A stretch of DNA of 63,966 nucleotides, filler included, from Malassezia furfur (taxonomy: Eukaryota), in NCBI GenBank assembly GCA_052055015.1. It is 4 parts of 4 records of this genome, joined end to end, with 100 filler letters (N's around TTAATTAATTAA, not from the genome) between each part and the next. Parts side by side here need not be neighbours in the genome. Positions count along the whole stretch, not along the records: positions 53,681 to 63,966 come from JBQJIT010000396.1; 3 more parts are not named here. One strand, written 5' to 3'. Position 1 is the first letter of the stretch; every line of letters begins with the position of its first letter. Positions 40,366 through 63,966 of this stretch are shown here, in pieces. The notes under the pieces were generated by a model that worked only from the letters and a program-made list of their open reading frames with translations, did not search any database and was not told the DNA's origin. The position numbers were made by a program, and so were the translations under genes.

Positions 40366-40372
40366 TATAAAA
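40366..40372 (+). promoter_or_regulatory. TATA box of the LEA-like gene
   Basis: TATAAAA about 47 nt upstream of ATG 40419, followed by a CA-rich leader. Confidence 0.6.
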
Positions 40373-40418
40373 GTGGGCCTTTCTTGAGCATATAGCACCC
40401 CACCAACAACAATCGAAC

Positions 40419-40761
40419 ATGTCTTCCTACACTCAGCAAGCTAAGGACCAGGCCAGCAACCTCTCGAACCAGGCCAGCGAGTACGCCCAGCAGGGCAAGA
40501 ACCAGGCCAGCGACCTGAGCCAGCAGGGCAAGAACCAGGCCAGCAGCATGTCGAACAGTATGTACCAACTCTTGCCCATCGTATACTAACACTGCAGCTG
40601 CTAGCGAGTACGGCCAGGACGCCAAGAACTTCCTGTCCGAGAAGACCGAGAGCGTGAAGGAGTCGCTTGGCGGCTCTGGCAACTCGGCCGGCTCGAGCTT
40701 CACTGAGCAGGCCCAGAACGCCGTTAACTCGGCCAAGGAGTCGCTCGGCCTCAACAAGTAA
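40419..40761 (+). CDS. 100-aa hydrophilin, LEA/Hsp12-like protein (absent from the ORF track)
   Basis: MSSYTQQAKDQASNLSNQASEYAQQGKNQASDLSQQGKNQASSMSNT|ASEYGQDAKNFLSEKTESVKESLGG...NAVNSAKESLGLNK*; 40-nt intron 40558-40597 with a perfect TACTAAC; optimal codons; 33-nt repeats. Confidence 0.85.
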
Positions 40762-40795
40762 ACTTCCTCTTGTAGATGATTTCAATTATATTGGT

Positions 40796-41845: not shown

Positions 41846-41958
41846 AGTGTGAACCGCCGCCTTCTCTCGCGACCTACCCCGTGCGCGGCCCACAAAGGAA
41901 GGTTATGCCCGATTAACCCGATCGACAGCCGTGCTGTGCTTGCCGATCGGCAACCAAC

Positions 41959-43016
41959 ATGCACCTTACCAGGTTTCTCGTGTTGAGCGCGTTCTTTGCG
42001 CTGGGCGCGGTTGTCTACGCCGCGAACTGGGACAAGGATGATATCGAGGTACGCTCCATCCCTCATGAAGATTTTCGACCTGCAGCATGCGCTGGAGAAG
42101 ATGGAAGGTGTAGGCGCCAATTTCTATTCGATCATGGGTCTGAAGCCGAGTGCGACACTTGCGCAGATCCGCAAGGCGTACCGTGAAAAGAGTTTGGAGT
42201 GGCAGTATGTATATTTGCTCATACAGTCCCGACAAGAACTCGGGCGTGCCCAATGCGTACAAGCGGTTCGAGCAGCTTGGCTTGATTCACAAGATCTTGC
42301 GTGACGAGCGTCGTGACCGCTACGACCACTTCCTCTCACACGGTTTCCCGAAGTGGCGGAGTACGGGCTACCACTACGAGCGGTATCGACCAGGCCTTCC
42401 ACTCGTATTGTTCCTGCTCGTGGCTTTCTCTGTGGGGGTGCAGCTGCTGGTGCAAAAAATCAACTGGCGTAAGGACAAGGAACGCATCGAGAATCTCCGT
42501 CGGAGCGCTTATGCACTTGCTTGGGGCGCTTGGTTCCAGACACCATCGAATGAAACCAAGGGTATCAAGCCCAAGGCGCGCCCGCACGAGAAGAAGGTGC
42601 GTGTGCCGCTTTCTGGGTTCCCCGACTTCCCCAAGGCGCCTGCTGAGAGTGCCATCAAGGCCGGCACTGTCAACTGGGATGAGGAGGGTGAGAAGGTGCG
42701 CAAGGCAGTCACTTCGGCGCCTCTCAGCTTCTCGGAGGACAATCACTTGCTAGATGTTATGGTGTATGCGGATGGCAGTATGGCTGCGAGCAACCCAGCC
42801 ACGCAAGAGTGGTTTGCAATTGAGCCGCTTGAGGACAAGAATGCCCCGTCGTTGCTGACGACTTGGCCTGTCACGGTGACCAGGTCGTTCTTTGCGAAAC
42901 GTGACTCGGAAACCACCGAGCCGCTGGACGGGCACGCCGAGGAGACCGTTGAAGAGTCCAACAGTGCCAAGAAGACTCCCGCGCGTCGTCGCAAGCGTGC
43001 TACGAAAGCGAACTAA
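41959..43016 (+). CDS. ER-membrane J-domain protein (Erj5-like)
   Basis: Signal peptide, WDKDDIE|IFDL, FYSIMG..IRKAYREKSLEWH|PDKN (HPD split by intron 42205-42226), RYDHFLSHGFPKWRSTGYHYERYRPG, then a TM helix. Confidence 0.88.
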
Positions 43017-43907
43017 TTAGGCACGAAGGAACTTAGCATGCCAGCGGATGTGCTCGGCGCCGAACGTGCTGATGAAGAAGTAGCTGTGGTCGTAGCCCTC
43101 GCGCAAGTTCACCTGGACACGGCTAGCGTCAATCCCCGCTTTCTTCGCAGCCTCGCTGAGCGTCTCCGGGAGGAGCTGCTTCTGCTTGTAGAAGTTGTCG
43201 GCGAGGCCGCAGTCGACGAGAATATCGACGTTCGTCTTGCCCAGCTTGCTGAGAAGCTCCACAGCATCGTACTCTTTGCCTGCTTCGACGCCACCTTCCA
43301 GGTAACCGTTGAATGCTTTTTCACCCCAAGGGCACGCAATCGGGTGGCAGATGGGGGAAAAGGCAGACACCGAGCGGTACGTACCAAATTTGCGCAGGTA
43401 GAGAACCAGCGCACCATGACCGCCCATCGAGTGACCGAAGATCGAAGCCTTCTCCAAATCAAGCGGAAGGTCAGAAGCCTTGAGCTTCTCCGGCAGCTCC
43501 TTGGTGACGAAGTCGTACATATTGTAGTATTTGTTCCAAGGCGATTTGGTCGCGTTCAGGTAGAAGCCCGCGCCTTGTGTCAGTGAAGTCCACGTACCTG
43601 TGCCGAAATCCCACGACTCGTCCTCGCCGTCAATGTTGGCCCCACGGGGACTGGTATCGGGAAACACAATCGCAATCCCCTCCTGTGCGGCCGCCTCGAA
43701 GAAAGCGCCCTTCTGTGCGCCATTGTCGTCGGTGCAGGTCAGGCCGGCAAGATAGTACAAAACGGGCGCCTTGGCACTCGCGCTTGCCTTGGGCGGAACG
43801 AAGACATTAATCTTTGTCTCGAGTCCGCCGAGAGCCGAGGAGTTGAACGCATATTTGGTCAAAACACCGTCAAACACCTTGTTTTGCGACTGTACACTGA
43901 AGCTCAT
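43017..43907 (-). CDS. S-formylglutathione hydrolase (esterase D)
   Basis: LYYLAGLTCT, PDTSPRG, WDFGTG|AGFYLNAT, GHSMGGHGAL, GYDHSYFFISTF; in-frame 24-nt intron 43574-43597. Confidence 0.95.
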   Translation of the reverse strand: MSFSVQSQNKVFDGVLTKYAFNSSALGGLETKINVFVPPKASASAKAPVLYYLAGLTCTDDNGAQKGAFFEAAAQEGIAIVFPDTSPRGANIDGEDESWDFGTGTWTSLTQGAGFYLNATKSPWNKYYNMYDFVTKELPEKLKASDLPLDLEKASIFGHSMGGHGALVLYLRKFGTYRSVSAFSPICHPIACPWGEKAFNGYLEGGVEAGKEYDAVELLSKLGKTNVDILVDCGLADNFYKQKQLLPETLSEAAKKAGIDASRVQVNLREGYDHSYFFISTFGAEHIRWHAKFLRA

Positions 43908-43989
43908 GATGGAGGGGATCGGTCCGTGCCCGGAGTAATGACGTCATTTTGCACCGCCGATCCGTGGTCCCGCATTGCGCCCAACAACG

Positions 43990-45099
43990 ATGTCCCAACC
44001 TTCGGAGTCGTCCTGGAGCGCTTGGAAGAACAAGACATGGGCCTCGGTTAAGAAAGTGGAAACGAAGGCATGGAATGTACTTGAGCCGGTCGGACATTTC
44101 TCGAACCGTGTGGCGGGGCGTCTGGGCATGGAATCGTTCTGGCCCACGTCGCTCGACAAGGAGATTGAGAAATGCGCCCGCATCATTACGACGTTTACGC
44201 GCAACGGCGCTGCCGTCGGCGACGACAAGGTACCGCATGCACCTGAGGAGAAGGCAGAACACCAGCTCTCCAGTGACGAATATGCGGACCGCAAGACGCA
44301 AAGAGTCGCCTTTACCATCCCGCAAAAGCTCTTGCAGGATGCCAAGGGTGTCGCCATCTTCACCGTGTTCCGCACCGGTCTTGCATTCAGTGCCGCAAGT
44401 GGATCGGGTGTGGTGCTGACCAAGGACGAAAAAGGTGAATGGGGTAGTCCCTCAGGGATCCTCATCCACACAATTGGCTGGGGCTTTGTGATCGGCGCAG
44501 ATGTGTACGACGTTGTGCTCATCTTGCGTAACGATCGCGCAGTGGACGCCTTCAAGTACCCCAAGATCAGTATCGGTGGCGAGCTGAGCGTGGCAGCGGG
44601 ACCTGTGGGTAACGGCGCCATGCTGGACTCCGGCGTCGAAGCCTCGCCATGCTTGTCGTATGTTAAGTCGAAAGGCCTCTACTTTGGTCTCCAGCTGGAC
44701 GGCACGATCATCGTGACGCGCTCCGATGAGAATGCCCGCTTCTACAACTATCCAGAGATTCCCATCACCACAATTTTGGACAACAAACTGCATCGTCATC
44801 AGATCCCCAAGGACTGCATGCCGCTCTGGCAGGCACTGTGTGCTGCCGAGGGGCGTCCTGAGCACCTGGGTACGGATCTGATCACCGAGGGTCCTGCGCC
44901 CGGTGACCAAGAGCTGTCAGAGGAGGACAAGCAAGCTTTGCAGCAAGAAGCGGCGAAGCGCAGCGCCGCGGAGGGCAGCGTGCCAGCACCTGCCGCCGCG
45001 CCCGCCGCCGAACCAGCAGCCCAGCCGGCAGCCATGCAGGCCGACACATTGTACGTTCCGCCGCAGCCGCCCCGTCATCCCTCCATCAACAAGCCATAG
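43990..45099 (+). CDS. SYLF/Ysc84-domain protein lacking SH3, paralog 1
   Basis: ESFWPTSLDKEIEKCARII, IPQKLLQDAKGVAIFTVFRTG..SGSGVV, WGSPSGI, GGELSVAAGPVG, SYVKSKGLYFGLQLDG, RSDENARFY. Confidence 0.85.
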   Translation: MSQPSESSWSAWKNKTWASVKKVETKAWNVLEPVGHFSNRVAGRLGMESFWPTSLDKEIEKCARIITTFTRNGAAVGDDKVPHAPEEKAEHQLSSDEYADRKTQRVAFTIPQKLLQDAKGVAIFTVFRTGLAFSAASGSGVVLTKDEKGEWGSPSGILIHTIGWGFVIGADVYDVVLILRNDRAVDAFKYPKISIGGELSVAAGPVGNGAMLDSGVEASPCLSYVKSKGLYFGLQLDGTIIVTRSDENARFYNYPEIPITTILDNKLHRHQIPKDCMPLWQALCAAEGRPEHLGTDLITEGPAPGDQELSEEDKQALQQEAAKRSAAEGSVPAPAAAPAAEPAAQPAAMQADTLYVPPQPPRHPSINKP

Positions 45100-45109
45100 G
45101 TATCCCGCA

Positions 45110-46258
45110 TTAATTCAGAAAGTGTGCAAATCGAATACATCCATCATCATCGCTGCGGTCATGGAAGCCAAGCCACCAATCACTAGCGTTGCGCATCGGC
45201 TTCCCGTGGGTCTGTAGTTTTGTGGCGAGAAAGACGTTATCACTAGACGATGCGCAGCGTACAACAATAGCATTCAGCACCGAAGAGTACGTCGCCGAGC
45301 CCGGTGGGCGGTCGCGTAGCGTCGTATGCACATGTGTGTCCAGTTCGGAGAGCGGCCTTGGCGAGTTTCGGCGCAGCGAAGCCCCCTCGCGCATGGACAC
45401 CGCGACAGGGGGGAATGACTCCTTGGCAGGCACCAGCGTCGTCGTCAGCGGAAGATAGTCACCAAATGCACGCATGCGAGCATCCACTTTGTCCGCATCC
45501 CACTCGGTCCACTTGACCTCGCCTATACTTTTTTTGAGTTTGGGCGCGCGTGTTGCGTTGGCCGCGTCCTGCGCCCAGGCACCCTGGTCGCGTTCGCGGA
45601 GGTGCGCAATGACATCCACGAGCAGCTCTGATCCAAGAGAAGCCAGCTCGTTTGCCAGGGATTTGTACGTGCTCCCCTCGGTAATTGGCATCGGTACTTG
45701 TCCTAGTATGCGGCCTGTGTCGAAATGCTGCGGTGCCAACTGCTGTACCGAGACACCGGTTCTGTCAAGCTGGCGCGCGATGGCCCACTGGATCGGTGCT
45801 GCGCCACGCAGCTGCGGAAGAAGCGAAGGATGTACATTGAGCGTTTGCGACGCCGATGGAAACTGCCGCAAGATGGACTGGGGAATCATGTGCCCAAACG
45901 ACACAGTAAGAAGCAAGGGCGCCGACGACGAGCGGAGTGCATCTGGCAATGCGTAGCAATCCATGCCCGAGGCAGGTACATTTTCAATTGGAAACTTGCA
46001 TGCCTCTGCAAATCGTTTAACGGGCGACACGCGCATTCGCTTGCTGCCCCATGCGTGCTGTGCGTCCGGCGGAGTGAGCACCTGCAAAGTGTTGTACAAT
46101 TTCTTGTGCGCAGCCAGGCGCTCGAGAATGGTCAAAGCAAACCCGTCGGTCCCGCAAAACAGTACGTCGTATGGTCCTTCGGGTACGCGGGTCGATACGG
46201 CTCGTACGCCGGGCGGCCGGCGCACGGTCCGCCGACTGAACACGCCCAACAGCGCCAT
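45110..46258 (-). CDS. FMT1: Mitochondrial methionyl-tRNA formyltransferase
   Basis: VLFCGTDGFA, TVSFGHMIP, LNVHPSLLPQLRGAAPIQWAI, TGVSVQ, FDTGRIL, ATRAPKL. Confidence 0.9.
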   Translation of the reverse strand: MALLGVFSRRTVRRPPGVRAVSTRVPEGPYDVLFCGTDGFALTILERLAAHKKLYNTLQVLTPPDAQHAWGSKRMRVSPVKRFAEACKFPIENVPASGMDCYALPDALRSSSAPLLLTVSFGHMIPQSILRQFPSASQTLNVHPSLLPQLRGAAPIQWAIARQLDRTGVSVQQLAPQHFDTGRILGQVPMPITEGSTYKSLANELASLGSELLVDVIAHLRERDQGAWAQDAANATRAPKLKKSIGEVKWTEWDADKVDARMRAFGDYLPLTTTLVPAKESFPPVAVSMREGASLRRNSPRPLSELDTHVHTTLRDRPPGSATYSSVLNAIVVRCASSSDNVFLATKLQTHGKPMRNASDWWLGFHDRSDDDGCIRFAHFLN

Positions 46259-46340
46259 GGTTCACGCTTACCAAACCTCCACTTCGCGTATGGGGGGGAA
46301 GGGACGCGCCTTGGAAACTACTGCTCAACTCGCTCGAAGG

Positions 46341-47602
46341 ATGCCGCCAGTAACCAAGGGAGGGCGCAAAGCATCCCTTACCGACCGTCCGCTATCGGGA
46401 CTCTTTGCGATTGCTAAGCCCAGTGGCCCAACCTCGATGGAACTGTTGGACAAGCTCAAACCGCTGCTTGCTAGCTCCTCGCTGTTTTACCCCACCAACG
46501 CGCCGGCGCCCTTCTCGAGCGCCGCCAAAAAACTCAAGCGACCAAAGCCATGGGAAAAAGCATTGCTGGAAAAGTGCGGGCGATTGCCCCCCAAAATCGG
46601 GCAAGGCGGCACACTAGACCCCTTGGCGGAAGGCGTTTTGGGTACGTAGCGTTGCTTACCCAGTGATCGGCGTGGGCGCCGCAACCAAAGAGCTGCAGCA
46701 GTTCCTGCACTGCACCAAAGACTACCGGGCAACAGGGCTGCTCGGTAGTGCGACCAGCTCGTATGACTGCAAAGATCCGGTGGTGCTTCGTGCGCCCTTT
46801 TCGCAGGTGACCGAGGTATTGCTTCGTGAAAAACTGCCTCTATTTACCGGAGAAGTGCAGCAGATACCCCCGCTGTACAGCGCGCTGCGTATGGATGGCA
46901 AGAGACTGTTTGAGTATGCACGCGAAGGTATCCCTTTGCCCCGGCCCATCGAGGCGCGCGACATGACGGTACATGAACTCCGCCTCGTGGAATGGCTGCC
47001 CGAGGACAAGCATACCTACCGTGTGCCCGACATGGAAGTGTCCGAGGAAGACAAACAAGTATTCGAGCGAATGCGAAAGATTGCAGGACGTGATCACGCT
47101 TTTGATACAATGAAACCGGCGGTATCGGACGCCGTCGAGGCAAACTCCACTGTGAACCAACCAGGCGCGGAGAATGCTGAGCCCGAGCCCAAAGAACCCG
47201 CGTCTGAGGACGCTTCGGCGGATGCCACGGCATCAGAACACCCTGCTGCATTCACCCTCGAAATGACCGTGTCATCCGGAACCTACGTACGCTCCATTAT
47301 CCACGATCTTGGCGCGGCATGCGGTAGCGCCGCGCATGTGGTGCGTTTAATTCGCACGCGACAAGGCCAATTCTCGCTGGGACACGGCCCGACCACTGAA
47401 GGCGCCTCTGTGGATGACAGTCAAGTGTCGCTGCCGGGCAACTGCATACCGTGGTCTGTTTTTGAGCAGGGTTTGGCCGACCTCGAAGCGGCGCGCAAGG
47501 GGACGCCTGAATCCCAAGACGACGAAGGGCTTCGCGAGTGGGAGCGCGTCTTGCTCTCTCAGTATGTTTACATGCTACTCACACAGTATCCAACTTGTAT
47601 AA
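46341..47602 (+). CDS. PUS4: tRNA pseudouridine-55 synthase (TruB family)
   Basis: GLFAIAKPSGPTS, KIGQGGTLDPLAEGVL|VIGVG, QIPPLYSALRMDGKRLFEYAREG, MTVSSGTYVRS, LIRTRQG; introns near 46642-46663 and at 47562-47586. Confidence 0.92.
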
Positions 47603-48388
47603 CTAGCTATCCCGATGCAGCGGCACGATGGACTCGAGCGACTTGCGCAGCTGCTCCACGTGTTGTTTGGCATACTGCAGCGCGGCTGCCGACTCGTCCT
47701 GCCGAAACTTGGGCACGCCAGGTCCGACGTCGGAGCGGAAACTGGACAGTGCGCGCACGTGGAAAATGTGTTTGGGGTGTGCCCTGGTATCGTCGCCGCT
47801 CATGTCCGAGTCAGCAGTGCAGTAGACGCGCAGCTCGTTCAGGACAAGGGGGTTGTCAGAGTGCAGCACATAGCGGAGTCCATATACGAGCTGTTCGGCA
47901 TATGGCGCCCAATTTAAGAGATACACCAGCTCAGTCCAGCCCGCATGGTGCTTAGCGAGCGCTCCCAGACTGTCGAGCGGCGTCGTAAACACTGTAACAC
48001 CATCGATCGGTGGGAGCGACGCCGAAGCCGGCATCGGTGTCAGGTCTTCCACCAAGACAACCGACCGAACGAGTACGTTAGGCGTTGATCCAGGCGGTGC
48101 TGGTGGCAGAGGTAATGCCATGTAAGTTACGCCGCTCTCAGTGCGCACGGTAATGCGCATGTGCTCACGCGCGCGGCGGACATTGCTCCACTGCGAGTCG
48201 GACATTTCCAACGCCTGGGCCGATTCATCGTCACTACGCCGCAGGAATGTCTCGCGAGTGACAAATGTCGTAGGGGGTACATTGATTTTGCGGCTTAGCG
48301 CCTCGAGCAAGGCGCCGACGTGTGACGGCTCGATCGTCCCGGCTGCCGACACCTGGGTATGCTGCAGCTGCACATCGCTGCTGGCCAT
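47603..48388 (-). CDS. Hypothetical 261-aa protein, possibly Mediator subunit Med18-like
   Basis: Intact ORF filling the locus. Size and pattern (N-terminal QVSAAGTI, central YLLNWAPYAEQLVYGLRYVL, C-terminal amphipathic helix) are loosely Med18-like; family call is weak. Confidence 0.45.
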   Translation of the reverse strand: MASSDVQLQHTQVSAAGTIEPSHVGALLEALSRKINVPPTTFVTRETFLRRSDDESAQALEMSDSQWSNVRRAREHMRITVRTESGVTYMALPLPPAPPGSTPNVLVRSVVLVEDLTPMPASASLPPIDGVTVFTTPLDSLGALAKHHAGWTELVYLLNWAPYAEQLVYGLRYVLHSDNPLVLNELRVYCTADSDMSGDDTRAHPKHIFHVRALSSFRSDVGPGVPKFRQDESAAALQYAKQHVEQLRKSLESIVPLHRDS

Positions 48389-48424
48389 GGGTGGAGGAGG
48401 TGCAATTACTCAGCGTGTTTCGCC

Positions 48425-49192
48425 ATGAGCGCGTGGAAGGACGCGCCGGATCTGGGGTCGTATGCTGACCGACACGAGACAGGCAGCGACGACGAGATCT
48501 TTGCCGAGCTCGATGCTGAAGTTGAGGCGCTGAACGAGGCGGACGCCGATGACGCAGCCGCCGTGACAGGCGGCTCGGGGCGTGACGCGAATGGTGACTT
48601 GGCTAGCGCCTTTCATGAATTCCGCGCGCAACGCATGGCCGAGATCGAAGCGGCGTAAGTGATCAGGTTAACGAAGTGTCGCGGCGCGAAAGGGGGCTGG
48701 TGCAAATGCAAACCGCGGCAAATATCGTGAAGTGCGCGATGAAAAGGAGCTGCTTCAAACAAGCTACAAAGAGCCACGCGTCGTGATTCATTTCGCGCAC
48801 AAAGAATTCCGGCGGTGCCATATTCTTGACCGGCATCTCGAGGTGAGCGAACGCAAACGCTCACACAGCATCTTGCGCGTCAGCACCCACATACCCTCTT
48901 CCTCAAGGCTGATGTGCAGGACACTCCTTTCCTGGTCGAGAAACTCAAAATCAAAGTCTTACCATGCATGCTTGCCTTTGTGAATGGCGAATGCAAAGAG
49001 AGACTGGTCGGGTTTGAGGACTTCGGGAATGCAGACAACTTCTCGACCGCGGCGTTGGAATGGCGGCTGGGCAGAGCAGGTGTGTGGTGCGCTCACGCAG
49101 GTGTCATTGTTCCTCAGCAGTCAGCGAGTAAGCCAATTCTGGGTTTTGGTGTGCCATCTGCGCCCAAGGATGAGGACGACTGGGACGATTAG
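48425..49192 (+). CDS. Phosducin-like thioredoxin-fold protein (Plp1/TXNDC9)
   Basis: FRAQRMAE, GKYREVRDEKE, VVIHFAHKEFRRCHILDRHLE, PFLVEKLKIKVLPC, LVGFEDFGNADNFSTAALEWRL; three introns. Confidence 0.88.
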
Positions 49193-49267
49193 GTAGCCAC
49201 CGGCATACGTGCCTCCTCCCTCGTAGAACCACCTTGGCACCCTCCAGGTTCGTGCCTGGCCTCCACA

Positions 49268-50371
49268 ATGCCACAAGCTACGCTGGAGTTTCCGCCGGCG
49301 TACACGGTCGGTAAGCGCGCGACTAACCGCAGTGGGTGTGTATCGCCTGTTCCATGATCCAAAACTCTGGCGCTCAATCTGGGAGGCTAGTCGACATGCT
49401 GTGGTGCGCGCCGGGATAGTTGCGGGCGCTTGGGTACGTTATGAGCGGCGCTCATGCAGGTGGCTTTCACGTTTCCTTTCCAAGGCTTCTTGTCGTCACT
49501 GTTTGTGGGCCGTATCGGCACTGCAGTGGGTGCAGAACAGTATGTTGTGCATGCTGATTTAGTGCGTACAATTTCTTGGCTGGATATGCGCGGTCCATGC
49601 ATATCCCCATGCTGTCTTTCCAAGGTACGTGTGAATGCTCATGTAGCACTGGCAAAGCTGCTTTTTATCCTGAACCAGGTCAGCTTCGTACTTGAGACGA
49701 ACCTCAAAAAGCAACTGCATCACTTTCGGCGTACGGCGTATGCCGACACGGTGGCCTCGCGCGGTAAGCCCGCCGACTGGTGGACCCCGTATACGGAAGA
49801 GTGGCAGAAGCCGCCCGTACCCCAGTCGTCGCATGCAGCGCGGCGCGGCTTGAGTGAGCGGCTGAAGCAGGGAGTGATTCGCTGGGTGACGCGCAAGGTG
49901 CTCATGATCTTTACGACCTCGATCCCTCTGTTTGGTGTGGTGGTGTATGCCGGTTTTTCGGCGCTGGACTATGCGACAATGTTGCAGTCTCCCTTGTTCG
50001 AGGCCAAGCACATGACACCACAGCAGGTTGAGGTGTGGGTAGAGGAGCGGCGCACGTCGTACTGGCTTTTCGGATTCTTTGCAATGTTGCTGGAGCGTGT
50101 GCCGCTCTTGGGTATGGCCTTTTCCATCTCGAACCGGATTGGCGCGGCGATGTGGGCGCACGACCTGGAGAAGCGGCAGCAACGCTTCCGAACCGGCGAG
50201 CTCCACCCACTCAGCGAGCTCGACACGAAACGGGCGCCGCACATCCCCGAAGATGGGCAACCGGGTAGCTACGGTCATCCTGCGCGTGCCGACGTCGATC
50301 TGCCCGGCGACTTTATGGCGCGGCCAAGCGGTTTGTCGACGGCGACAAGCCGCACTGCATCGCATACATAA
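49268..50371 (+). CDS. EI24/Rrt8(Lds)-like multi-pass membrane protein
   Basis: FPPAYTV|VGVYRLFHDP, DTVASRGK, YWLFGFFAMLLERVPLLGMAFSISNRIGAAMWAHDLEKRQ; four short introns. Confidence 0.72.
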
Positions 50372-51529: not shown

Positions 51530-53580
51530 CTACCCACGCACGAGGCGGTCCGGCAGCGGCCCGTACCCGTCGCGCGGTGCGAGCTTTTCGTCGGCTTCGT
51601 TGTAGTTGCACAGCTCGGTGGACTCGAGGAAGAGTTCATCGCGCAGCACATCCGTCCAGATGCCGAGGCGCGACGGCAGTGCACGCGCGGCCGCTACGCC
51701 GAGCGCTAAGAGGAGCACAGCGGCGTTGGCGAAACGCAGGATGCGTTGCTGCACGTCGGCGGGCGCACCAAGCTGCCCCCCCAGCACGAGCATCGCGGTC
51801 GCAACGAGGTACGGCGCGACGAGGGCGAGGAGGAGCGTGGCGATCATCGGGAGCAGGGCGTAGCGCGTCGCGTGCGCAACGTGGATGCGCCAGATGCGCC
51901 CGTGGTGCAAGAAATCGTACGCATCCCAGAGCATGGGGTAGTCGTCTGGGAACACCATGAGGATTGCGAGCAGCGCGCAGTTCATCGCGACGACACCGAG
52001 CGCCCATGCGTGGAAGACGTTGAGCTGTGGCACGCCGTCGATCGTGCGCTGCGTCGGCACAATGTACTGGTGCGCCACGAGCCCCACGAGGAAGGGGATG
52101 AGCGTGCCAAACGTCAGAAGGACGTACGCGGCGCGCGCGGCGACCGCTGCGCCCTTCGCCCAGCGGCGCTCGCCCGGCAGGCGGAGCTGGGCAGCGCAGT
52201 GGCGCACCAACGTCGCCGCGACGAGCGCCACGAGGCCGAGCACGACGGCATACACGTCGTGCATCCCGCGGCGCCCGCACAGCGCCGCGATCGTGCGGCC
52301 GAGGACGAGCGGCGTGACAAATGCCGCCACGCCAACGACCGCGCACGACAGCCAGAGCATGACGATCAGTGCAACGATGCGGCCGTGCAGGTGCGGGGGG
52401 AGGTATACGATGGTGTATGCGGCGCGCTCCTTCATCTGCACAATGGCGCGCTGCTGTGCCTCGAATGCAGCCTGCGCCGCGGCGTCGATGGGGATGCCCG
52501 CGGCGTTTGTCGGGATGATCAGCTGCGCGTCTGGCGCGGGGTGGTCGTCCGCCGGGACACGCGCATATCCGCCGTTGTGCACAAAGTGCGGGTCGTGCTC
52601 GGGGTGCGTGCGCGGCACCACAAAGTGGCGCGCGCGGTCGAGCCACGTGGCAGGGACGAAGCCGCGCTCGCCCGGCTGCTCGTCGCCCATCAGGAAAGCG
52701 GAGAGGCGCAAGCGCTTGGACGCCGCAATCCACCACGCGCGGAAGGCGCGGTGTGCGTGGTGCGCGAGGCGCGTGCGCTTCACTGCGAGGCGCAAGCCAA
52801 AGTGCACGAGGAGCAGGTCGATCGGCACGTGGAGCACCGGGCGCTGCGGGTGCCAGTGGAGCGGCAGCACGCCGGGCAGCGCGGCGCACGCCGCACGCAG
52901 GCCGAGACCGATGACCAGCACGAGCACCGCGCCGTACATCAGCACCGAGTCCCAGATGCGCCGCAGCTGCAGCGGCGTGCGGGTCTCGACGATCTCGCGG
53001 ATCGGGTGGTAATCGGGATCGGCGGCGTCGCGCATCCAGCACATCACACCGGGACGCACGACGGAGCGGATGGCGCTGAGGAACTGCGCAAAGTGGAACA
53101 TGTACACCGTGCCCGACGTCCAGCGCGTAAAGACGAACGTGAACGGCGCGGCACAGGCGTCGCCCGCCAGCATGCGGAACGACGCGCCGGGGAACAGCGG
53201 GAACAGGCACCACTCGAGCAGCACGCCGCAAAACAGCGGGAAGAGCACGAGGTCGATCACCGAAAAGGCAAACACCTTTGCCACGAGCAGGTACTGCTTC
53301 AGCACGTGCTTCGCCCACGGCATCGGCACGCCGTGCACCAGCGCCCCGCCGTACGCCTCGGCGGCGAGCAGCAGCAGCGCATACGCATGGCCAAGCACAA
53401 CGCACAGCACGCGCTCCCACACAGCGACGCCGCGCGTGTGCGCCTGCAGACCAAGCGCCAGCTGAATGCCGCGTGCGACGAGCGCCTGCACGTACCGAGC
53501 GGCCGGCGCAACGTACGCCGCACGCACGCCGAGCGCCGGCGCATCGAACGCCGCGGCCGGTGCAGCGGCCGGCACGGCGC
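51530..53580 (-). CDS. SSM4: ERAD E3 ubiquitin ligase Doa10/MARCH6, C-terminal part (5'-truncated by the gap)
   Basis: TD domain KVFAFSVIDLVLFPLFCGVLL..WTSGTVYMFHFA..VRPGVMCWMRDAADPDYHPIREI; RLSAFLMG; C-terminal element LRDELFLESTELCNY. Confidence 0.88.
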
Positions 53581-53680
53581 NNNNNNNNNNNNNNNNNNNN
53601 NNNNNNNNNNNNNNNNNNNNNNNNTTAATTAATTAANNNNNNNNNNNNNNNNNNNNNNNNNNNNNNNNNNNNNNNNNNNN
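53581..53680. other. Assembly gap with artificial all-frame stop linker
   Basis: N-run flanking TTAATTAATTAA. Confidence 0.97.
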
Positions 53681-55425
53681 GCCGCGACGAGGCGCCGCGC
53701 CAGCGCGCCGGACGCGCGCAGCGCCTCGAGCGCCGTGCGGTGGTGCTTGGCGCGCAGCGCGGTGACGAACACCGACGCGACGTACGGCACCTCGGCGGCG
53801 AGCGGCGTGGGCGCCGCGGCCGCGAGCTCGCTCAAAAGCACGACGCACGCCAGCGTCCGGTTGCGGTCGTGCAGCGCGGCGTCGCGGCTGCCGGACAGCA
53901 CGCGGCGCACCGCGGCAAGGATCGTCGCGCAGTGCGGCGCGACCGCCGAGCCGAACGTCGCCGCGAGCTGCGTGAGGGTGTCGAGCGCGGCGATCTGCGC
54001 GGCCGCCGAGCCGGTGCCCGCCTGCTTGCACAGCGACGGCACCGCGTAGGGGAGCAGGTCGTGCAGCGGCACGCCGCCATCCACCGCGTCGCGCTTGCGC
54101 TTGTATACGCCGACGTCCGGCTCGCGCGTCATGCGCTCGAGCAGCAGCGAAAAGGTGCTCAGCACCTCGAGGCGCACGCCCTCCTCGCGCTCGCCAAAGC
54201 GCGCGACGAGCGCGCGCGCGATGGTGTACGCCATGGGGCGCACCGCGTCCAGGTGCGCCGTGCACAGCCCCGCCAGCAGCTTGGCGGACGCGCGGCGCAC
54301 CTTCCACGAGACGTCGTCGTCGTCCGTGTACGCGTCGTCCAGTAGGTTCTCGTCGTCCTCCTCCTCTTCTTCCTCGTCGCTGTAGTCGGCCGCGTTCGGG
54401 TCGTACTTGAGCAGGCCGAGCGTCGGCTCCACCACCGCGCCCACGTCCAGCGTGCCGGGCTCGATCGCGTACACCACGAGCGCCGACAGCGTCTGCAGGC
54501 ACGCCTCCAGGAAGTCGTCGCGCTCCGCCTCATCGAGCGCCGTGCCGCTCGCCATGATGCGCAGCAGCTCCTCGGCGCGCGCCGCCGCGACGGGGCGCAG
54601 GCGCAGCGGCGTCTCGCGCGCCAGCACGCCGAGCAGCTGGATCGCCGTGCGCGCCGCCGGCACGGACGAGGACGTGAGCGCCGCCGTGCCGCGCTGCAGG
54701 AGCTCATCGTAGGCCGCCGGCGTGCACTCCACGCCGAGCATGCCGAGGCCCTGGATCGCGCGCTTCGACACCGCCGCGCTCTCGGGCAGCAGGCCCAGCA
54801 GCGCGTCGAGCACGGGCTGCTGCAGGTCGGGCTGCTGCACAAGGATCAGCGTAAAGTGCGAGAGCACGTCGAGCAGCGCGTCCAGCGCATGCATCTTCTC
54901 CGCATGGCCCACCGCCGCGGTCGTCAGCTGCTCCACCAGCACGGGCACCAGCATCGTCACGGCCACCTGGCTCAGTGCGGCGTCCGACGCAATCTCGTTC
55001 ATCAGCGTGCGCAAGGCTGCATGAGCGCACCACGTACCAAGCGACCCAATATCGCGGCTCTCTTCGTCCTGGACGCGCACAAGCGCCCCCAGGCTGGACA
55101 CAATCGTGTGGAAATTCGCCGGGCGCACGCGCGTCGACAGCGTGCCGAGCCTGCGTAAGTCGTCCCACGCACGTCTTCACCGCGAGGTTCTTCACCTCCG
55201 AATTCTTGTCCACGACCAGCTCCAGCACCTGCTTGACCACCGCCGACTCGACGCTCTCTTCCAGGGGCTGGTACCGGTAGGACTCCTGCGCGAGGCTCGC
55301 AGAGACGTCCATCAGCGCCATATACCGGAAGTCGGCGTCGGGCGACTTCATCTGGGCATGTAAGCACACGCTGCCGCACACACCTTGTCAAGCAGCGCTA
55401 CCATCGTAGTGCGATTCGCGCCCAT
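53681..55425 (-). CDS. CAND1: Cullin-associated NEDD8-dissociated protein 1, N-terminal part
   Basis: LLDK|MKSPDADFRYMALMD, DKNSEVKNLAVK, LKYDPN..acidic tract..DDDDVSWKVRRASAK, RFGEREEGVR; HEAT repeats; short introns. Confidence 0.92.
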
Positions 55426-55537
55426 CGTGCTCGTGGTGCACCCCGCGCGCGATCGAAGCCGAAATTCGGACAGGGGTACTCCACATCGCGCGTCGTGCCC
55501 GTGGGTGGCCCATGCATGGGTCGCGTGCTACGGAGGT

Positions 55538-57147
55538 CTATGTAGCACCCGAACGGCGCCGCTTGGCCTGCTTCGCTTTCGGCTTCTCCTCCGCATCGCT
55601 CGCATCGCCGTCGTCCTTCTCGTCGCGGGCAATGGCCATGTTCGCCCACACTTCCTCCTCCTCGGCCTCCTCGGCCTTCTTCTCGGACGGCACCTGCACC
55701 GACAGCTGGTCCGAGGCCATCGAGATCACATTCTCCAGGCCCGTAAAGTAGGAGCACAGCTCTTTACCACGCCGGCGCTGGCCATTGCCGTACGGCGTGC
55801 CGATATCAAACAGCCGCACAAGGCGGTCCAGCGACGAACCCAGCAGCAGCGTCTTCAGGGGCTCTTCGTCCCGTTGCACGTGCAGGACAAGTAGACTGGA
55901 GATAGTGCCGGTAATGTCTGGTGTCAGCCACAAGAACAACGTACCTTTGTACTGGAAGAGCAGCCGGCCCGTCTTGGCGTCAATCGCATACAGGTTCCGC
56001 GCCGAGTCGCCAGCAAACAAAATCGAGTCCGAGCGCGCGAGCTTCAGCACACGCAGCGCGCCTTGGTTCTTGGGCGCGACCTGCCATTCATGCACGTGCT
56101 TCGGCTTCTTCTTGCTCGGCTCGTACACACGAACGATACCGTCCTTGGTGCCCACGGCAACCGCCGCATCCAGCGCACTCAGTTCGTCCTCCGATACCTC
56201 CGCTTCCGATGCCGAGTTGCGGGGCAGGAAAACCACAGAGCGGATCAGGGGGTGCCTTGCGAGCGAAAGTGCATCGTTGGGCAGGTTTTTTGCACGCCAA
56301 AGCTCACCAGGGAGCAAGTCTCGCTGCTTGCCCGTCTGCGACGAAGCACGGCGCTTCTTACCAGCCGCGGCCTGGGCATCCTGGTCATCGTCCTCGGCTG
56401 GTTTCTTAGCAGATGTCTCTGCTGGCTCACTGTCTCGCTCCAGCGTCTTCCGCAGACTCCACAGAGAGAGGGGCACTTGCTCGCCGCCGTAGGCAAAATA
56501 CCGCGGCTTGTTGGTGTCAGGGTAGAAAGCCACCTGGTGCAAGGGGCTTGGAACAGTCCACTTCACAGCAAGACTGTCAAGCTGTTCTTCCGTAGCATCG
56601 CGCAAAAGGGTTGCACCTTCTTTCGGTTCAGCATCATGGCCCTTCGCCTCGAGAGAAAAGCTGGAGAGCGGGGTATAACGGAAGGCACCACCGGATGTAC
56701 AGCTGAGGACGCCTCTGCACTGTTAGTATGCTTCGTTCGGTTAAGTACGCACTCTTCTGTAATCTTCAAGCCGACCCAACGTTCTACTCCCACACGCATC
56801 CGCTCTTCACGAATGGAGCAGAGGAGTTCCGCAGTATAGTGGGCCTTGCCATTACCCTCCATTGCAGGGACAGAGATCAAGTCTACAACCCCACTCTTCC
56901 GTGCCATAGCCAGCTAACCTGTGAGCTTGGTGCACGAGCACAAACATACCACGGAGACAGTTGTACCATCAGCTTGAGCAAGCGAGCCGTACACCAATTC
57001 TTGGCAAGCAACGGCAGGCCCATATTGCCAACCTTGCACATCGACCGGCTCGTATGATTTAGGATTCGTATGGAGCACTTTGAGGCGTCCGGTAGAGTCT
57101 CCAGCATACACGCCGACGCCAGGGACGTCTTCCGGAACTTCTGCCAT
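55538..57147 (-). CDS. NSA1: Pre-60S WD40 ribosome biogenesis factor Nsa1/WDR74
   Basis: VYAGDSTGRLK, FAYGGEQVPLSLW, LWRAKNLPNDALSL, GTKDGIVRVYE, SSLDRLVRLFD, EEVWANM; several short introns. Confidence 0.8.
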
Positions 57148-57209
57148 CGTTTCTCAACGTGGAGGTTTGAAATGACGCAATACCGTCTTTGACGGACACC
57201 ATCTGCAAC

Positions 57210-57700
57210 ATTATCCATTTCACCATTTAAATAAAACCATAATGAATCAATTTTAAAACTATTTATACCATAAGTACTGATTTACTTAAGTTAATTACAA
57301 AGAAACAAACAAGATATAAAACAATATTTATTTTTAAATATAAATTACGATTATAAAATTAATTCATAATAGGACAACACATCATATTATTTACAATATA
57401 TTAAAGAAGATATTTATTGGTGTTATTATTTATTTAGAATATTATTTCTAATTATATTCTATAAATATATAAACCAATTTATTATTTCACAGAAACATTT
57501 AATAGTGGCATTATATTTATTTATGTATATTGCGGGATATTAATTAAATTTAAATTGTCTGTTCAATATTTTATTTTGGTTTATAAAATTAGTGAGGCAG
57601 AAGCTATTTCTTTCTCAAAAGTTCTTAATAGTGTAATAGTTGAGAAACATTTATTGATTTCGTATCCATTGAATTTGCTACATTTACTTATTCTTTTTTG
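57210..57700. other. AT-rich island; putative short regional centromere core
   Basis: Hand count of 76 G+C in 420 nt (57241-57660), about 18% GC against a 60-70% background; intergenic; the only such island in the window. Confidence 0.78.
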
Positions 57701-59008
57701 TCGTTGTTCAAGTCGACCGATTCTTCGAGGCCGTGGTCGGAATCGGCCGACGGAGCCTCGGCTTCGGTGTCCTTGCTCTGAGGTGGAGGCGGAGGCACCG
57801 ACTTGGTTTGATTGAGCTTGGGGTGCTTTGGTGGAGGAGGCAAGTTCCGGACTTGCTCTCGCTGCTTGCGTTCGTAGTCTTCGTCAACTTCATCCTTGAA
57901 GCCAGCCTGCTCCATGGCTTCGAGCTGCTCTGGCGTCGGGGGGAGCTGAAGCCGTTCGCCTTCCTGCAGGACGCCCATGCCCCCCTCCATCAGGGCACTC
58001 GTATCGGGTCCCCGAGGTAGGTCGCTCGGCTTGAAGGTCTCGAGCACACCGCCCTGGGCAACACCGGTCTCGGCCTCAAGCAGTGCCTGGCGCAAAGGCT
58101 CGATGCTAGGCGGTGCCTTGGCCCTCCCTTCGAGAATGTCACGGGCCTTGATACCGGGCCAGTAGTAGAACCGCTCGTTCTCATCGAAGCGATCCAGGAA
58201 GACCTGGCCAGACAGCTCGATGCCAGCATAGAACCCGCGCGAGTTGACGTAGGAGTACAACGGCGCCGGTTTCTTTTTGATGTCGAGCTGGCCCATGTAC
58301 GCCGCGCCCAGAGGACCGGACGAAATGTGCGTGTCTGCAGTGAGCGAAAACTTGTGCGTCTTGAAGGATTCGAGCATTTCGTCCGTGTTGATGATGAGGA
58401 TGATCTGTGTGAGTGGTGAGACGTACATCCACCAAGTCCAGGCCGAGAACGAAGCCCGCCGAGTAGTAGTTCGGCAGGATGGCCGAGGGCGGCGACCAAG
58501 AGCCGTCTGGGAGGCGCCCGAGGAGTAGGCCTGAGCCGTTCATCCCACCGAACGGCGCAAGCGCCGTCTTCATACTCGAGTAGATACAGATGCCTTTGGC
58601 ATCGCGGATCACTTGCGGAGGGATTTTTTTGCTGGGTGAGTTGCTGATACGTACATGACCTTGGGTGGATTCGCCTTCCACTTTTTTTTGGTCTCCTCGT
58701 CCTTCGGTTCCTCCTTGACCTGGAGACCCTCTGCGGTGAAGGAACGCAGAATGCGCACGCATTTCTCGATTTCTAACGGAAAGTCGTTCGAGGAGGGCCA
58801 GAAGCGCTCGCCGCCGAGTCCTGGGTGAGTGGGGATGCGTACGGTTGGACCCTGCGTTGGCGTATCCGGCCATCCAGTCCGAGATCGCGATGCCCTTTTG
58901 CATGGCCGAATTGGTGAACGACTTCCAGCGCGACGGGCGCTTTTCCTCGCGCGCCGGAACGGCGCTTGCCTCGGCGGTGCGCTGCGGGGGGGGCTCCACT
59001 GGGGCCAT
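57688..59008 (-). CDS. SYLF/Ysc84-domain protein, paralog 2
   Basis: GERFWPSSNDFPLEIEKCVRILRSF, KIPPQVIRDAKGICIY, GSGLLLGRLPDGSWSPPSAI, LYSYVNSRGFYAGIELSG, RFDENERFYYW; three short introns. Confidence 0.82.
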
Positions 59009-59113
59009 CGTTGCGCTCTGGACACCCAGCGTATGCCCGATCGCGCGTCTCGTGACTCATCGGGCACGACGCGACACGCGCGGCGGAGCAAAATACACGT
59101 CTCCACACACCGC

Positions 59114-62100
59114 ATGAGCGCTTCGGAGAACAACACCGCGGGGGCCTCGACGGCGCTCCCGCTGGAGTCGCGGTTATGCGACGTGGTTCTGTCCGATGTT
59201 GCACAGACCCAAGGTATGCGGTGCGCTTACACAGTCGTCCACCTCGAGCGGTTCCTGCAGCAGATGGGCGCGCAGATCTACTCGCACCGTGCGCACAAGG
59301 AGAACCATACGGGCAGTTGGGCGTCGTCGCTGTGCCTCGCGAGCCCGGTGACGGGCAACGACAACCTGACCGTGTTTCCCGACCCCGAGCAAAAGATCAC
59401 GCGCACGCTCGAGCACGCGCTGAACGAGCTCGTGACGACGGAGCGCACCTACGTCAAGCGCATCGAGGCGCTCTTCAACGTACGTCGCGTGCTTACCCAG
59501 CGATATGCCGTGCCGCTCCGCCAGCTCGCCCAGGACAAGGACACACAGATCATCCCTGCGCACGAGGCCGAGCGCATGTTCGGCAACCTCGGCGAGATTG
59601 TCGCGGCAAACAAGATGCTCCTGTGTGAGCTCGAGATCCTCCACGAGCAGGGCGCCGCATACATGGCCGCCTCGGTCGGCGACGTGATGGTGCAGAACGT
59701 ACGTGACGACGCTGACGCAGATGCACCGGTTCGCGTGCTACGACGAGTACATGGCCGACTTTGAGCAGGCCAAGAGCATCTACACGCGCATGCTCAAGAA
59801 CAAGGCGTTCCGTGGGTTCATTGAGCGCACGCAGCACGCGACGAACGACCTCGGCAACGCAGGCCTGCGCGAGCTGATGATCGAGCCGCTGCAGCGCATT
59901 CCGCGCTACCGCCTGCTGATGAACAACCTCATGAAGGAGATGCCGACCTCCTCGGTGCAGTGCCAGCGCCTGCACGAGGCCACCAGCCTCGCGGGGCACA
60001 TTGCGTCGCGCGAGGTGAACAACGCGACACGCCGCGCCGCGATCCTCTGGAGCTGCTCCAAGGTGATCGACAAGTTCCCCGCGGAGCTGGCGACGTCGCG
60101 CCGCGAGCTGCTCGGCTGCATCGACGTCGACGAGCAGCTCGCCGAGACCCACTCGGGCATGCTGCACGCGCTCGGCTCGGTGCTTGGCCGCCGGCGCACG
60201 GCCGGCTTCTCGCTGCTCTTGCTCGACGACACGCTCGTCCTGGCACAGCGCCATTCGCACACGCCGACGCACCAGCTCCTGCGCGTCCAGGAGCCCGAGA
60301 AGCTCGTCGACGAGATGCAGGCCGAGCAGACGCGCTCGCCCGCGCCCGGCCGGCGGCACGAGCTGTCGTTCGCGGGCATGATCGACCTGAATAGTGTGCT
60401 CGCGACGGGCCTCGACGGCAGCCAGGCGCGCCTGGCGTTCCTCGGCCCGCTGCGCGGCTCGTCGAACAAGGCGATGACGCGCGTGTTTGCCGACGCCAAC
60501 AGCACGCGCACTACGCCGCGCATGGCCTACTTCCTCGACTGCCTCTGGAAGGCACAGGCGGTGCACCGTGCGCGCTCGCGCGCGATGCAGGTGCGTGCGA
60601 GCGTCGTGCCGGCTGCCGGCGAGCGCCCCGCGCACGTCATGCTGTGGACGATTCTGTCGCCCGCGCAGTTCCAGCGCTTCCCCCACAAGCGCAACCTGCT
60701 CTTCCAGATCGGCTCGGTGCCGAGTGCGCGCGAGCTGCAGCACACCTACCACATCGACACGTGCGTCAACATCGAGCCGCACCCCGACGAGGCGCGTGCG
60801 ACCGTCACGGTGCTGCGCCCGAACGGCGCGCGCGCGACGCAGGTCGTAGCGCTCGACGCCGTCGCGCCGCTGTGCGCCGACTTCTGCTGCGGCCTCGTCG
60901 CGCTCCCCGAGGTGCCCGAGAAGGAGGCGCCCGCCGCCGAGGTGCCCGTGCGCCGCGCCAAGTCGCTGCGCACGCCGTCGCGCCGCGGGCCGGGCGCCCA
61001 CCGCGCGCGCAGCTTCATGAGCGAGCGCGTGCGGGCGAGCATCCAGTCGAGCCTCGAGGCGGTGATGGAGAGCCAGGAGCACGAGACGCCGCCGCTGCCG
61101 ACCTCGGCGTCCCACAAGCGCGGCATGCCGCTCGGCGAGATCAGCAACATGACGCCCAAGCGCCGCGCGGTGTCCAAGGCGCCGTCGGAAACCAAGGTGC
61201 CTACGGAGGAAGAGCTCGTGGAGGAGTACCAGCGGATGGACACGCAGCCGGCCGAGACGTCGCCGACGCGCAACGCGCTCACGATGCGTGCCGAGGAGTC
61301 GAAAGAGTTCCCGAACCCGTTCGACGAGGCCATCGACGTGCACGGCACGGCGCTCACCGAGTCGGAGCGCATGGACGAGGCCGAGGTCGAGGCACAGCTC
61401 GACGAGCCGCAGCCCGAGCCGGTCAAGTCGCCGATGCAGACCGACTCGGTGAGCACGGCGACGCTGCCGCACGACGACCTCACGCCGATCACCGAGGAGG
61501 CGTCCAAGGACGCGCGCGAGGCGCCCGCCTCCCCCGCCTCGATGCAGCTCGACCCGAGCCCCGAGGGGGTGGAGGCCTCTGAGGTGGACCGTGCGGAGCC
61601 CCAGCCGGAAGACGCCAAGCCGGCCGAGGCCCCTGCACCGGTCGAGGCCCCTGCACCGGCCGAGGCCCCTGCACCGGTCGAGGCCCCTGCGCCAGTCGAG
61701 GCCTCGGCACCGGTCGAGCCCCCCGCACCGGTCGAAGCACCAGCGCCGACACAGGCCCCCGCGCCGGCCGAGCCCCCTGTTGTTGAGGAGCCCGCCGCTG
61801 CCGAGGCGCCTGCCGCGGTCCCTTCTGCGGCCCCCACCAAGACCCCGACGCTGGAGCCTGCGACGCCCGCCATCGACAAGCCGCTACCCGACTCGCCTGC
61901 GTCCGAGCGGCCGCAGCGCGTTGTGTCGCGCGTTGCGTCGCGTGCTTCGTCACGGCCGGCGTCACGGCCGGCGTCGCGGCCGGCGTCGCGTGCCACGTCG
62001 CGGGGGTCGCAGCACCAGGTCACTGAGGAAGAGATGCAGCAGATGCTCCGTCCCCTGCTGGGCCACCTGCAGGACGCGCCGACCGCACAGTCGGCCGTGC

Positions 62101-62849
62101 ACGTGCAGGTGGACCCACTGCCTGAGCCGCAGCACGCCGAGATCGAGGGCCGCGAACCAGACATGGACCTGACCATCCTGCGCCTGCTGCAGGAGGAGCA
62201 GGCGCGTGACGGCGAGCCGTCGCCCGTGCCGGCGTCCGAGGCACGCTGGGAGCCCGACACGCCGCTGCTGCCGAGCGTGCTGGACGTGCCGAGCGACAAC
62301 GAGAGCCTGGCGATGAAGCGCGCGATGACGCAGGTGAACGAGGCGATCGCCGGGCTACGGAAGCACCGCCCGCCCGCACATGCGAACGGGTGGCAGGAGG
62401 ACTGGGCGCAGTTCAAGCTGGCGGTCAAGCGGATGAACACGTGCTGGACGCGGATGGAGCGGGCCTACGAGGACAAGCAGATGGACCTGGCGGCGCTGCG
62501 GCTCGCGCAGAAGGAGGCCGACCCTACGGTGCGCGTTGCGCCGGAAGAGTACTTGCGGCTCGAGGACGAGGCGAACATGGTGCTGCCGCTGCGGATCCAG
62601 GTGGAGCAGCTCACGCAGAAGGTCGAGTCGCTGCTGGCGCTCGAGCAGGACACGCGGATGGAGAATGCGGAGCTGTACGACGTGTTCAACGAGGAGCTCA
62701 GCCACCTGTACAAGCACAGTTTCCGCCCCGCGAACGAGGAGATCGAGGCGCTGCGCCACGCGCTCCTCGCGGCGAAGACCGAGCTGCACCAGGTCCGGGT
62801 GGAGAACCGCGCGTTGCGGCAGCAGTGTGCGTTGGCCAGTGCTACATAG
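59114..62849 (+). CDS. Dbl-homology RhoGEF with C-terminal coiled coil (S. pombe Gef2-like architecture)
   Basis: LNELVTTERTYVKRIEAL, MFGNLGEIV, GLRELMIEPLQRIPRYRLL; C-terminal MENAELYDVFNEELSHLY; introns 59214-59234, 59480-59500 and about 59699-59720. Confidence 0.85.
61620..61775 (+). repeat. 18-nt coding minisatellite, (P-A/V-E-A-P-A)n, about 8 units
   Basis: ccggYcgaggcccctgca units, degenerating toward the 3' end. Confidence 0.88.
61935..62001 (+). repeat. 12-nt coding repeat (ASRP)n
   Basis: gcgtcacggccg/gcgtcgcggccg units; translates as SRASSRPASRPASRPASRA. Confidence 0.75.
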
Positions 62850-62885
62850 TCTCGTTAGTCAGCAAACAGCGCTCTGTGCTCCGCG

Positions 62886-63966
62886 ATGGTCCACGAGGGG
62901 ACGCCGGTGAACTACACGTTTACGGTCGGCAAGCTCGGTACGTGCACCGCTCACCAGACGCGGGGATCGTACGCACACCACACTGACGCAGGCGATTTTG
63001 ATCGGCGAGCGCGCGTCGCTCATCGAGTTCCCCGCGCTGCTGCTGCCCCAGGGCGTGCAGGTCGGCAGCGTGGTCGACATTCGCGTCACGCGCAACGACG
63101 CCGAGGAGCAGCAGCAGCGCGAGGCGTTTGTCGCGCTGCAGGACGATATCCTGCAGATGTACGGCATCAACAGCCCGGCCCGTACGTCGCCCCCTCACGC
63201 AGCGCCGTCGCTTCGTCTCCGCAACGTCACACAGACCACCGTCACGCTCGAGTGGGATCCGCTGCAGCTCGCCAACGCGGACCTGCACTCGCTCGACATC
63301 GTGCGGAATGGGCAGCGCATCGCCAAGGTGCCGCGCCCGCTCCACACCACCTCGACGAAGCTCTCCGGCCTCGCGATGGACTCGGACTACACCATCCAGC
63401 TCGTGCTCTACACGAGCGCCGGCACGTTTGCCTCGGACGAGCTGCGCACGCACACGCACACCATCGAGGACACCAGCGGGATCCATGTGTGCTTTGGCGC
63501 GATCGACGACGCGCGCCTGCGCGCCGCGGCCGAAGACGTCCTCACCACCCTGGGGGGGCAGTGGTCCGAGCAGATCCAGGTGGATACGACGCACCTCGTC
63601 ACGACGCATGCGCCGCGCGGCACAGACACTCACGACGCGCGCATGTACGCCAAGGCGCAGCAGCTTAGCATCCCCATCGTCCAGCCGCACTGGCTGTTTG
63701 CGTGTGCGGACGAGCATCGGTACGTGGAGCGCTCATGCAGTATGGTGAACATCTCGAAGTACTATGTGGATGTCATGGCGCCGAACGCCGTGCAGGTCCA
63801 GGAGCGCCTCGCGAAGCAGACGCCCCGGCCCGCGCCCGCCGAGGCGCCCGCGCCCGAGGTGCCGCCCAAGACCGTGGCGCCCGCCGACGCACCGGACGCT
63901 GCGCCCACCGACGGCGCGACCGTCGAGGCGACGATCGCGTCGAGCGACGCGCCCGCTGCGCCCGAG
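62886..63966 (+). CDS. CHS5: Exomer subunit Chs5 (FN3 + BRCT), 3' end runs off the window
   Basis: FTVGKL|DAGI|AILIGERASLIEFPALLLP, LRLRNVTQTTVTLEWDPLQLA, TKLSGL, AQQLSIPIVQPHWLFAC; introns of 20, 23, 21 and 21 nt. Confidence 0.9.

Follow-up and report, generated by a model that had tools for sequence, protein, structure and literature searches.

The closest described systems are the short regional centromeres of Malassezia. In M. sympodialis, ChIP-seq of Mtw1 revealed bound regions of 3.2-5.1 kb that include active genes, with AT-rich cores of less than ~1.2 kb (Sankaranarayanan et al. 2020, eLife 9:e53944, PMC7025860). As reported in that paper, Malassezia centromeres lack repeats and are enriched for a 12-bp AT-rich motif, represented by a PhyloGibbs position weight matrix. 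At a log-likelihood ratio above 7.5, 7-13 motif matches are reported for every M. sympodialis centromere, compared to no more than 3 in any 500-bp window elsewhere. One AT-rich core was predicted there for each chromosome of M. furfur CBS14141, and ChIP-qPCR with CENP-A-3xFLAG found enrichment at all seven predicted centromeres. The published M. furfur cores range from 168 to 721 bp in length and from 15 to 27% in GC content. Table 2 of the same paper places MfCEN5 at positions 342,885-343,372 of Chr5 (488 bp, 21.5% GC), and the global GC minimum of CBS14141 Chr5 is reported to lie at CEN5. Coelho et al. (2023, PMC10410736) report a single low-GC region per chromosome in new chromosome-level Malassezia assemblies and assign it as the candidate centromere.

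The locus presented here lies in a window of 63,966 nucleotides, by which is meant the whole stretch of DNA analysed. It consists of a short AT-rich island between NSA1, a ribosome biogenesis gene, and a gene encoding a SYLF/Ysc84-domain protein. The island is very probably the AT-rich core of a short regional centromere that corresponds, in a strain of the M. furfur complex, to MfCEN5, and it would be expected to bind the kinetochore there. The original prediction of a Malassezia centromere core is borne out by an MfCEN5 primer pair on the left edge of the island, by the CENP-A enrichment of the corresponding amplicon in CBS14141, by the match in size and GC content, and by the conservation of the gene order in a distant Malassezia contig. 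The features of the locus are collected in Table 1.

Table 1. Features of the contig carrying the AT-rich island, in positions of the window
Feature	Position	Strand	Basis
CAND1/TIP120 orthologue, N-terminal ~445 codons, cut by contig end	53681..55176	-	residues 2-445 match
NSA1 (ribosome biogenesis, WD40-like), at least 1 intron	55541..57147	-	UniRef name of homologues, tblastn exon mapping, N-terminal translation
MF5 F1 primer site (MfCEN5 ChIP-qPCR)	57138..57155	+	18/18 identical; overlaps NSA1 start codon
Probable AT-rich centromere core, MfCEN5 counterpart	57210..57700	.	composition, MfCEN5 primer pair on left edge, size and GC match to MfCEN5
MF5 R1 primer site, inside core	57290..57313	-	21/24 identical, 3 mismatches
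SYLF/Ysc84-domain gene	57688..58903	-	Pfam Ysc84 E = 5.6e-28; tblastn mapping
RhoGEF gene	59688..62849	+	Pfam RhoGEF E = 1e-15; syntenic in L002
CHS5 gene, running off the end of the window	62911..63966	+	Pfam CHS5_N, fn3_2, BRCT; syntenic in L002
Putative pericentric GC trough (~60-62% vs 70% further out)	55200..59500	.	GC profile; kinetochore extent by analogy

The window is not one chromosomal piece. It consists of four contigs strung together, each of ~17.7-17.8 kb ahead of a spacer. The three spacers are identical, 100 nt long (44 N, TTAATTAATTAA, 44 N) and ~17.8 kb apart (17840-17939, 35753-35852 and 53581-53680). The spacer is presumably a six-frame-stop linker of the type used to string contigs. 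The island is therefore physically linked only to positions 53681-63966 (10.3 kb). The CAND1 orthologue breaks off precisely at the third spacer, in agreement with a contig junction there. The match covers residues 2-445 only (55152-53710), and the orthologues at two metagenome loci described below (L001 and L002) have 1,072-1,104 residues with Pfam TIP120 at the C-terminus. The GC content of the whole window is 63.4%, compared to 64.9% for M. furfur, and the profile of base composition shows spurious dips in GC where the N-containing spacers lie.

The 491 bp of the island comprise 190 A, 207 T, 45 G and 49 C, a GC content of 19.1%. When a 40-bp window and a threshold of 35% GC are used to set the edges, the AT-rich stretch extends from 57195 to 57722. 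The lowest 500-bp value is 19.6% GC (at 57201), which corresponds to a z-score of -8.2 relative to 1,194 N-free 500-bp windows outside 56.7-58.2 kb (mean 64.0%, SD 5.4%, minimum 51.2%). Elsewhere, N runs account for all 100-bp windows with less than 40% GC, apart from a marginal dip to 36% at 40749-40863, and an island of such AT-richness is unique within the four contigs (64 kb). The core is surrounded by a wider GC trough; GC content is 59.5% at 55200-57150 and 61.6% at 57750-59500, compared to 70% at 50.5-55.2 kb and 59.5-64 kb.

The island has little internal structure. Tandem Repeats Finder detected no tandem repeats in it, and the repeats present are four direct pairs of 14-26 nt, in which the second copy is 73-86% identical, and one inverted pair of 22 nt with 77% complementarity. 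The island contains no transposon ends, no tRNA and no credible ORF, the longest stop-free frame being 78 codons, and a search of Rfam with 56.5-58.5 kb returned zero matches at E<=1. These properties agree with the original prediction of an abrupt island of ~490 bp and ~18% GC that starts ~60 bp upstream of the NSA1 start codon, ends at the SYLF stop codon, lies between flanks of lowered GC content, and lacks a credible ORF, transposon ends and a tandem array.

Both flanking genes appear intact and are well supported. In UniRef, the homologues of NSA1 are named 'Ribosome biogenesis protein NSA1', and the Pfam WD40 matches are weak. The start codon was placed at 57145-57147 on the minus strand because the first 38 residues are 89% identical to NSA1 of M. 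brasiliensis; its distance from the core is 48-63 bp, according to where the edge is drawn. On the other side, the SYLF stop codon (TAA, 57688-57690, minus strand) abuts the core at its right edge, and the last ~10 codons of the gene are already AT-rich. The SYLF protein shares 98% identity with M. furfur GLX27_004206; for NSA1, identity is 98% with unnamed sequences and 85% with NSA1 of M. brasiliensis. Based on these identities, the DNA is assigned to the M. furfur complex. The C-terminus of the SYLF protein (57691-57720) reads ...VDLNNDKKE here and ...VDLNDKKE in the M. furfur protein P0002, a length difference of one residue.

The primers used to map the M. furfur centromeres connect the island to a specific chromosome of CBS14141. 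Supplementary file 1 of PMC7025860 lists 11 primer pairs for M. furfur centromeres, and all 22 primers were searched against both strands, with up to four substitutions allowed. The MF5 F1 and R1 primers, which amplify MfCEN5, map in convergent orientation and define a product of 176 bp (32.4% GC) that spans the left boundary of the island. None of the other ten pairs maps as a convergent pair in the window. Six of the other primers (16-18 nt) have scattered matches with 3-4 mismatches in GC-rich DNA, without a nearby partner, and the remaining 14 have no match. The identity of the island with MfCEN7 was also considered and rejected. The proximity of 57.2 kb to the published MfCEN7 coordinate of 56,894 is a coincidence, the start of the window is not telomeric, and none of the ten MF7 primers maps as a pair.

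In CBS14141, the MF5 amplicon is bound by CENP-A. According to the source data of Figure 4B of PMC7025860, recovery at CEN5 was 0.32-0.87% of input, compared to 0.035-0.087% at the control locus. The means computed from these data (~0.61 vs 0.052) correspond to an enrichment of ~12-fold, and CEN5 has the weakest CENP-A signal of the seven CBS14141 centromeres in that paper. The amplicon lies only partly in the core, since 72 of its 176 bp are the NSA1 start and leader, and the location of these bases outside the core may be the cause of the weak signal.

The island described here occupies the same intergenic site as CBS14141 CEN5, as judged by the MF5 primers, and resembles it in length (491 vs 488 bp) and GC content (19.1 vs 21.5%). 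The island is the counterpart of MfCEN5, a centromere that was mapped and published in 2020; the prediction was right, but the centromere was already known. The contribution made here is a further MfCEN5 allele, from a different M. furfur-complex strain, and the published picture is unchanged. CENP-A binding was shown for CBS14141 alone, and the present island would be expected to bind it likewise.

The island lies between the stop codon and the start codon of two genes on the same strand and must hold a terminator and a promoter. It could in principle be an ordinary AT-rich spacer of this type, comprising the NSA1 promoter and the SYLF terminator, that lacks kinetochore function in this strain. 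This is improbable, as all other intergenic regions of the 64 kb stay at or above 36% GC in 100-bp windows, CENP-A binds the homologous site in CBS14141, and the centromere list of PMC7025860 contains one such core per chromosome. The island instead has the properties of a Malassezia core. It is shorter than ~1 kb, its GC content is far below that of the genome (19.1% vs 63-64%), it is intergenic within a GC trough of a few kb, and it has neither repeat structure nor transposons. The genes that flank it are those that flank MfCEN5, as indicated by the MF5 sites, the gene order in L002, and adjacent locus tags in other species.

The present allele differs from CBS14141 CEN5 in several respects. 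The MF5 primer within the core has mismatches at 3 of 24 positions, the SYLF protein has an extra residue near its C-terminus relative to P0002, and the proteins have diverged by ~2%. Because of these differences, the DNA is taken to come from another strain or lineage of the complex and not from CBS14141. The core-side primer site thus differs at 3 of 24 positions and the gene-side site at 0 of 18. This hints that, in the M. furfur complex, the core may be evolving more rapidly than the DNA on either side, as far as the small sample of one primer pair can indicate.

A strain unlike CBS14141 could also have a different karyotype, for example as the result of a chromosome fusion or of descent from a hybrid lineage, and the island could then be the relic of an inactivated centromere. 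Diverged parental lineages and hybrids are reported for the M. furfur complex (PMC10410736), centromere inactivation is described for M. furfur Chr3 (PMC7025860), and the core differs from the CBS14141 primer at 3 of 24 positions. However, the inactivated centromeres described in PMC7025860 lost their AT-richness, whereas the island is as AT-rich as the active M. furfur cores and its length is unchanged. A relic is therefore given as little weight as a plain spacer, and an active counterpart of MfCEN5 is by far the better explanation.

The locus can be followed beyond the M. furfur complex. An alignment of NSA1 orthologues retrieved six metagenome loci (L001-L006), of which L006 was left out as too distant; its NSA1 is 31% identical, and the 1.5 kb of sequence upstream contains no AT island. 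L002 (49.8% GC, NSA1 48% identical) contains the full gene order CHS5-RhoGEF-SYLF-[island]-NSA1-CAND1. Its island, at ~9100-9460, is ~360 bp long with 20% GC (13.5% in the lowest 200-bp window) and is the sole such dip in 21 kb. The original prediction had proposed a comparison of the order CAND1-NSA1-[AT]-SYLF-RhoGEF-CHS5 with other Malassezia centromeres, and the same order is indeed found around the AT island of this distant contig. L001 (61.5% GC, NSA1 53% identical) ends in a stretch of 14% GC (positions 1-170), 40 bp upstream of the NSA1 start codon. In addition, the locus tags of NSA1 and SYLF are consecutive in M. vespertilionis (MVES1_001635/001636), as they are in Malassezia sp. CBS 17886 (MSPP1_001766/001767). 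A flip of GC and AT skew at the core, as a signature of a replication origin, was considered and rejected; in noisy 1-kb profiles, neither the window nor L002 shows a consistent switch.

Fungal mitochondrial DNA is AT-rich and the assembly is a fragmented draft with contigs joined by spacers, but a mitochondrial insertion, a contaminant or an assembly chimera can be dismissed almost entirely, as both junctions of the island are internal to a single contig (53681-63966), the primer pair that spans the left junction was designed from an independent PacBio assembly, L001 and L002 have an AT island at the same intergenic position, and the island has no tRNA, rRNA, other Rfam match or ORF.

The conservation of the core is one of position and composition. 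The three islands (the window, L001 and L002) share no excess of 8-12-mers when compared to 200 dinucleotide shuffles. In the best case (the window versus L002, k=10), 14 shared k-mers were observed against 8.3 +/- 3.9 expected, a value reached by 22 of the 200 shuffles. Position and composition are therefore conserved, and the core sequence is not. The SYLF-core-NSA1 arrangement has been kept although NSA1 is only ~48% identical between lineages, and the core sequence has turned over completely. The point centromere of Saccharomyces (CDEI-II-III) has the same function and contains an element, CDEII, of similar AT-rich composition. However, no conserved CDE-like motif is apparent across the three islands in the k-mer comparison. 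Unlike the large, repeat- or transposon-rich regional centromeres of other basidiomycetes such as Cryptococcus, Malassezia centromeres have a far smaller bound region and lack retrotransposons.

The orthology of the locus is consistent with the published history of the centromere. As listed in PMC7025860, MgCEN2 of M. globosa, MslCEN5 of M. slooffiae and CEN3 of M. vespertilionis derive from the same ancestral centromere as MfCEN5, and Table 3 of that paper gives CEN8 of M. restricta and CEN3 of M. japonica as partial orthologues. The L002 island, between SYLF and NSA1, and the L001 island, upstream of NSA1, may belong with this orthology group; their core sequences are unlike. The same table records the orthologue of MfCEN5 as a breakpoint in the M. 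sympodialis/M. nana/M. dermatis group, the breakage of which left the M. sympodialis group with eight chromosomes instead of nine.

The island is not universal, since three of the five Malassezia-like loci (L003, L004 and L005, representing two lineages) do not have it. L003 and L005 are one lineage, with NSA1 closest to that of M. nana (67%). No AT island was found upstream of NSA1 in either, and the upstream region (1-5200 in L005) encodes a secretory lipase (LIP), an MFS transporter and a class-3 lipase. Likewise, no AT island was found upstream of NSA1 in L004, where XRN1 is present instead (L004:4959-9275). CAND1 is downstream of NSA1 in all five loci (L001-L005). Because L003/L005 and L004 have other genes upstream of NSA1, synteny in the lineages without the island ends exactly at the island position. 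NSA1 has three different upstream neighbours in four lineages, which suggests that the intergenic site upstream of NSA1 is a recurrent breakpoint. The absence of the island from L003-L005 fits what the published loss of this centromere predicts, and the end of synteny at its position is in keeping with the published proposal of AT-rich cores as fragile sites.

The island resembles the centromeres of M. sympodialis in having a sub-kilobase intergenic AT-rich core within a wider GC trough and in lacking repeats and transposons; the activity of genes flanking such cores is known from the M. sympodialis data. This particular centromere was lost in M. sympodialis by breakage, and lipase genes adjoin NSA1 in the M. 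nana-like loci. Composition and gene context suffice to recognise a Malassezia centromere in raw sequence.

By analogy with these systems, CENP-A nucleosomes would replace those containing histone H3 on the core of ~0.5 kb, and the kinetochore would be assembled there. Weaker kinetochore binding would spread for a few kb over the flanking genes, which would still be transcribed. The GC trough of ~4 kb may mark the expected extent of this basal binding. The centromere would be specified by its position and AT-richness, and not by a conserved sequence or by repeats.

The geometry of the locus would place transcription within the putative kinetochore domain. NSA1 starts ~50-60 bp from one edge of the core, SYLF stops at the other, and both genes are on the minus strand; the core must therefore contain both the promoter of NSA1 and the 3' end of SYLF. 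From this arrangement, the NSA1 promoter is predicted to be within or at the edge of the core and the 3' end of SYLF within it, and transcription would occur in or from the core. NSA1 is essential, as known from work with yeast. An overlap of kinetochore chromatin with the promoter of NSA1 and the 3' end of SYLF, as had been proposed, would agree with the Mtw1-bound regions of 3-5 kb in M. sympodialis. It is conceivable, though doubtful, that the core is coupled to transcription, such that the kinetochore platform, the NSA1 promoter and the SYLF terminator share one ~0.5-kb element and transcription that begins in the core or enters it helps to maintain centromere identity.

Finally, two observations concern the other contigs in the window. 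The region 39500-50000 has a GC content of 57.3%, compared to 65-70% elsewhere, and contains ordinary genes, including those for an esterase, a SYLF/Ysc84 paralogue (43942-45099, plus strand), a formyltransferase and a TruB pseudouridine synthase. A MARCHF6_C domain (C-terminal domain of a Doa10-like E3 ligase, E = 3e-19) is encoded in an open frame of 700 codons at 51533-53580 on the minus strand, which runs into the third spacer. This frame is on the contig that precedes that of the island and is unrelated to CAND1, despite their adjacency in the window.
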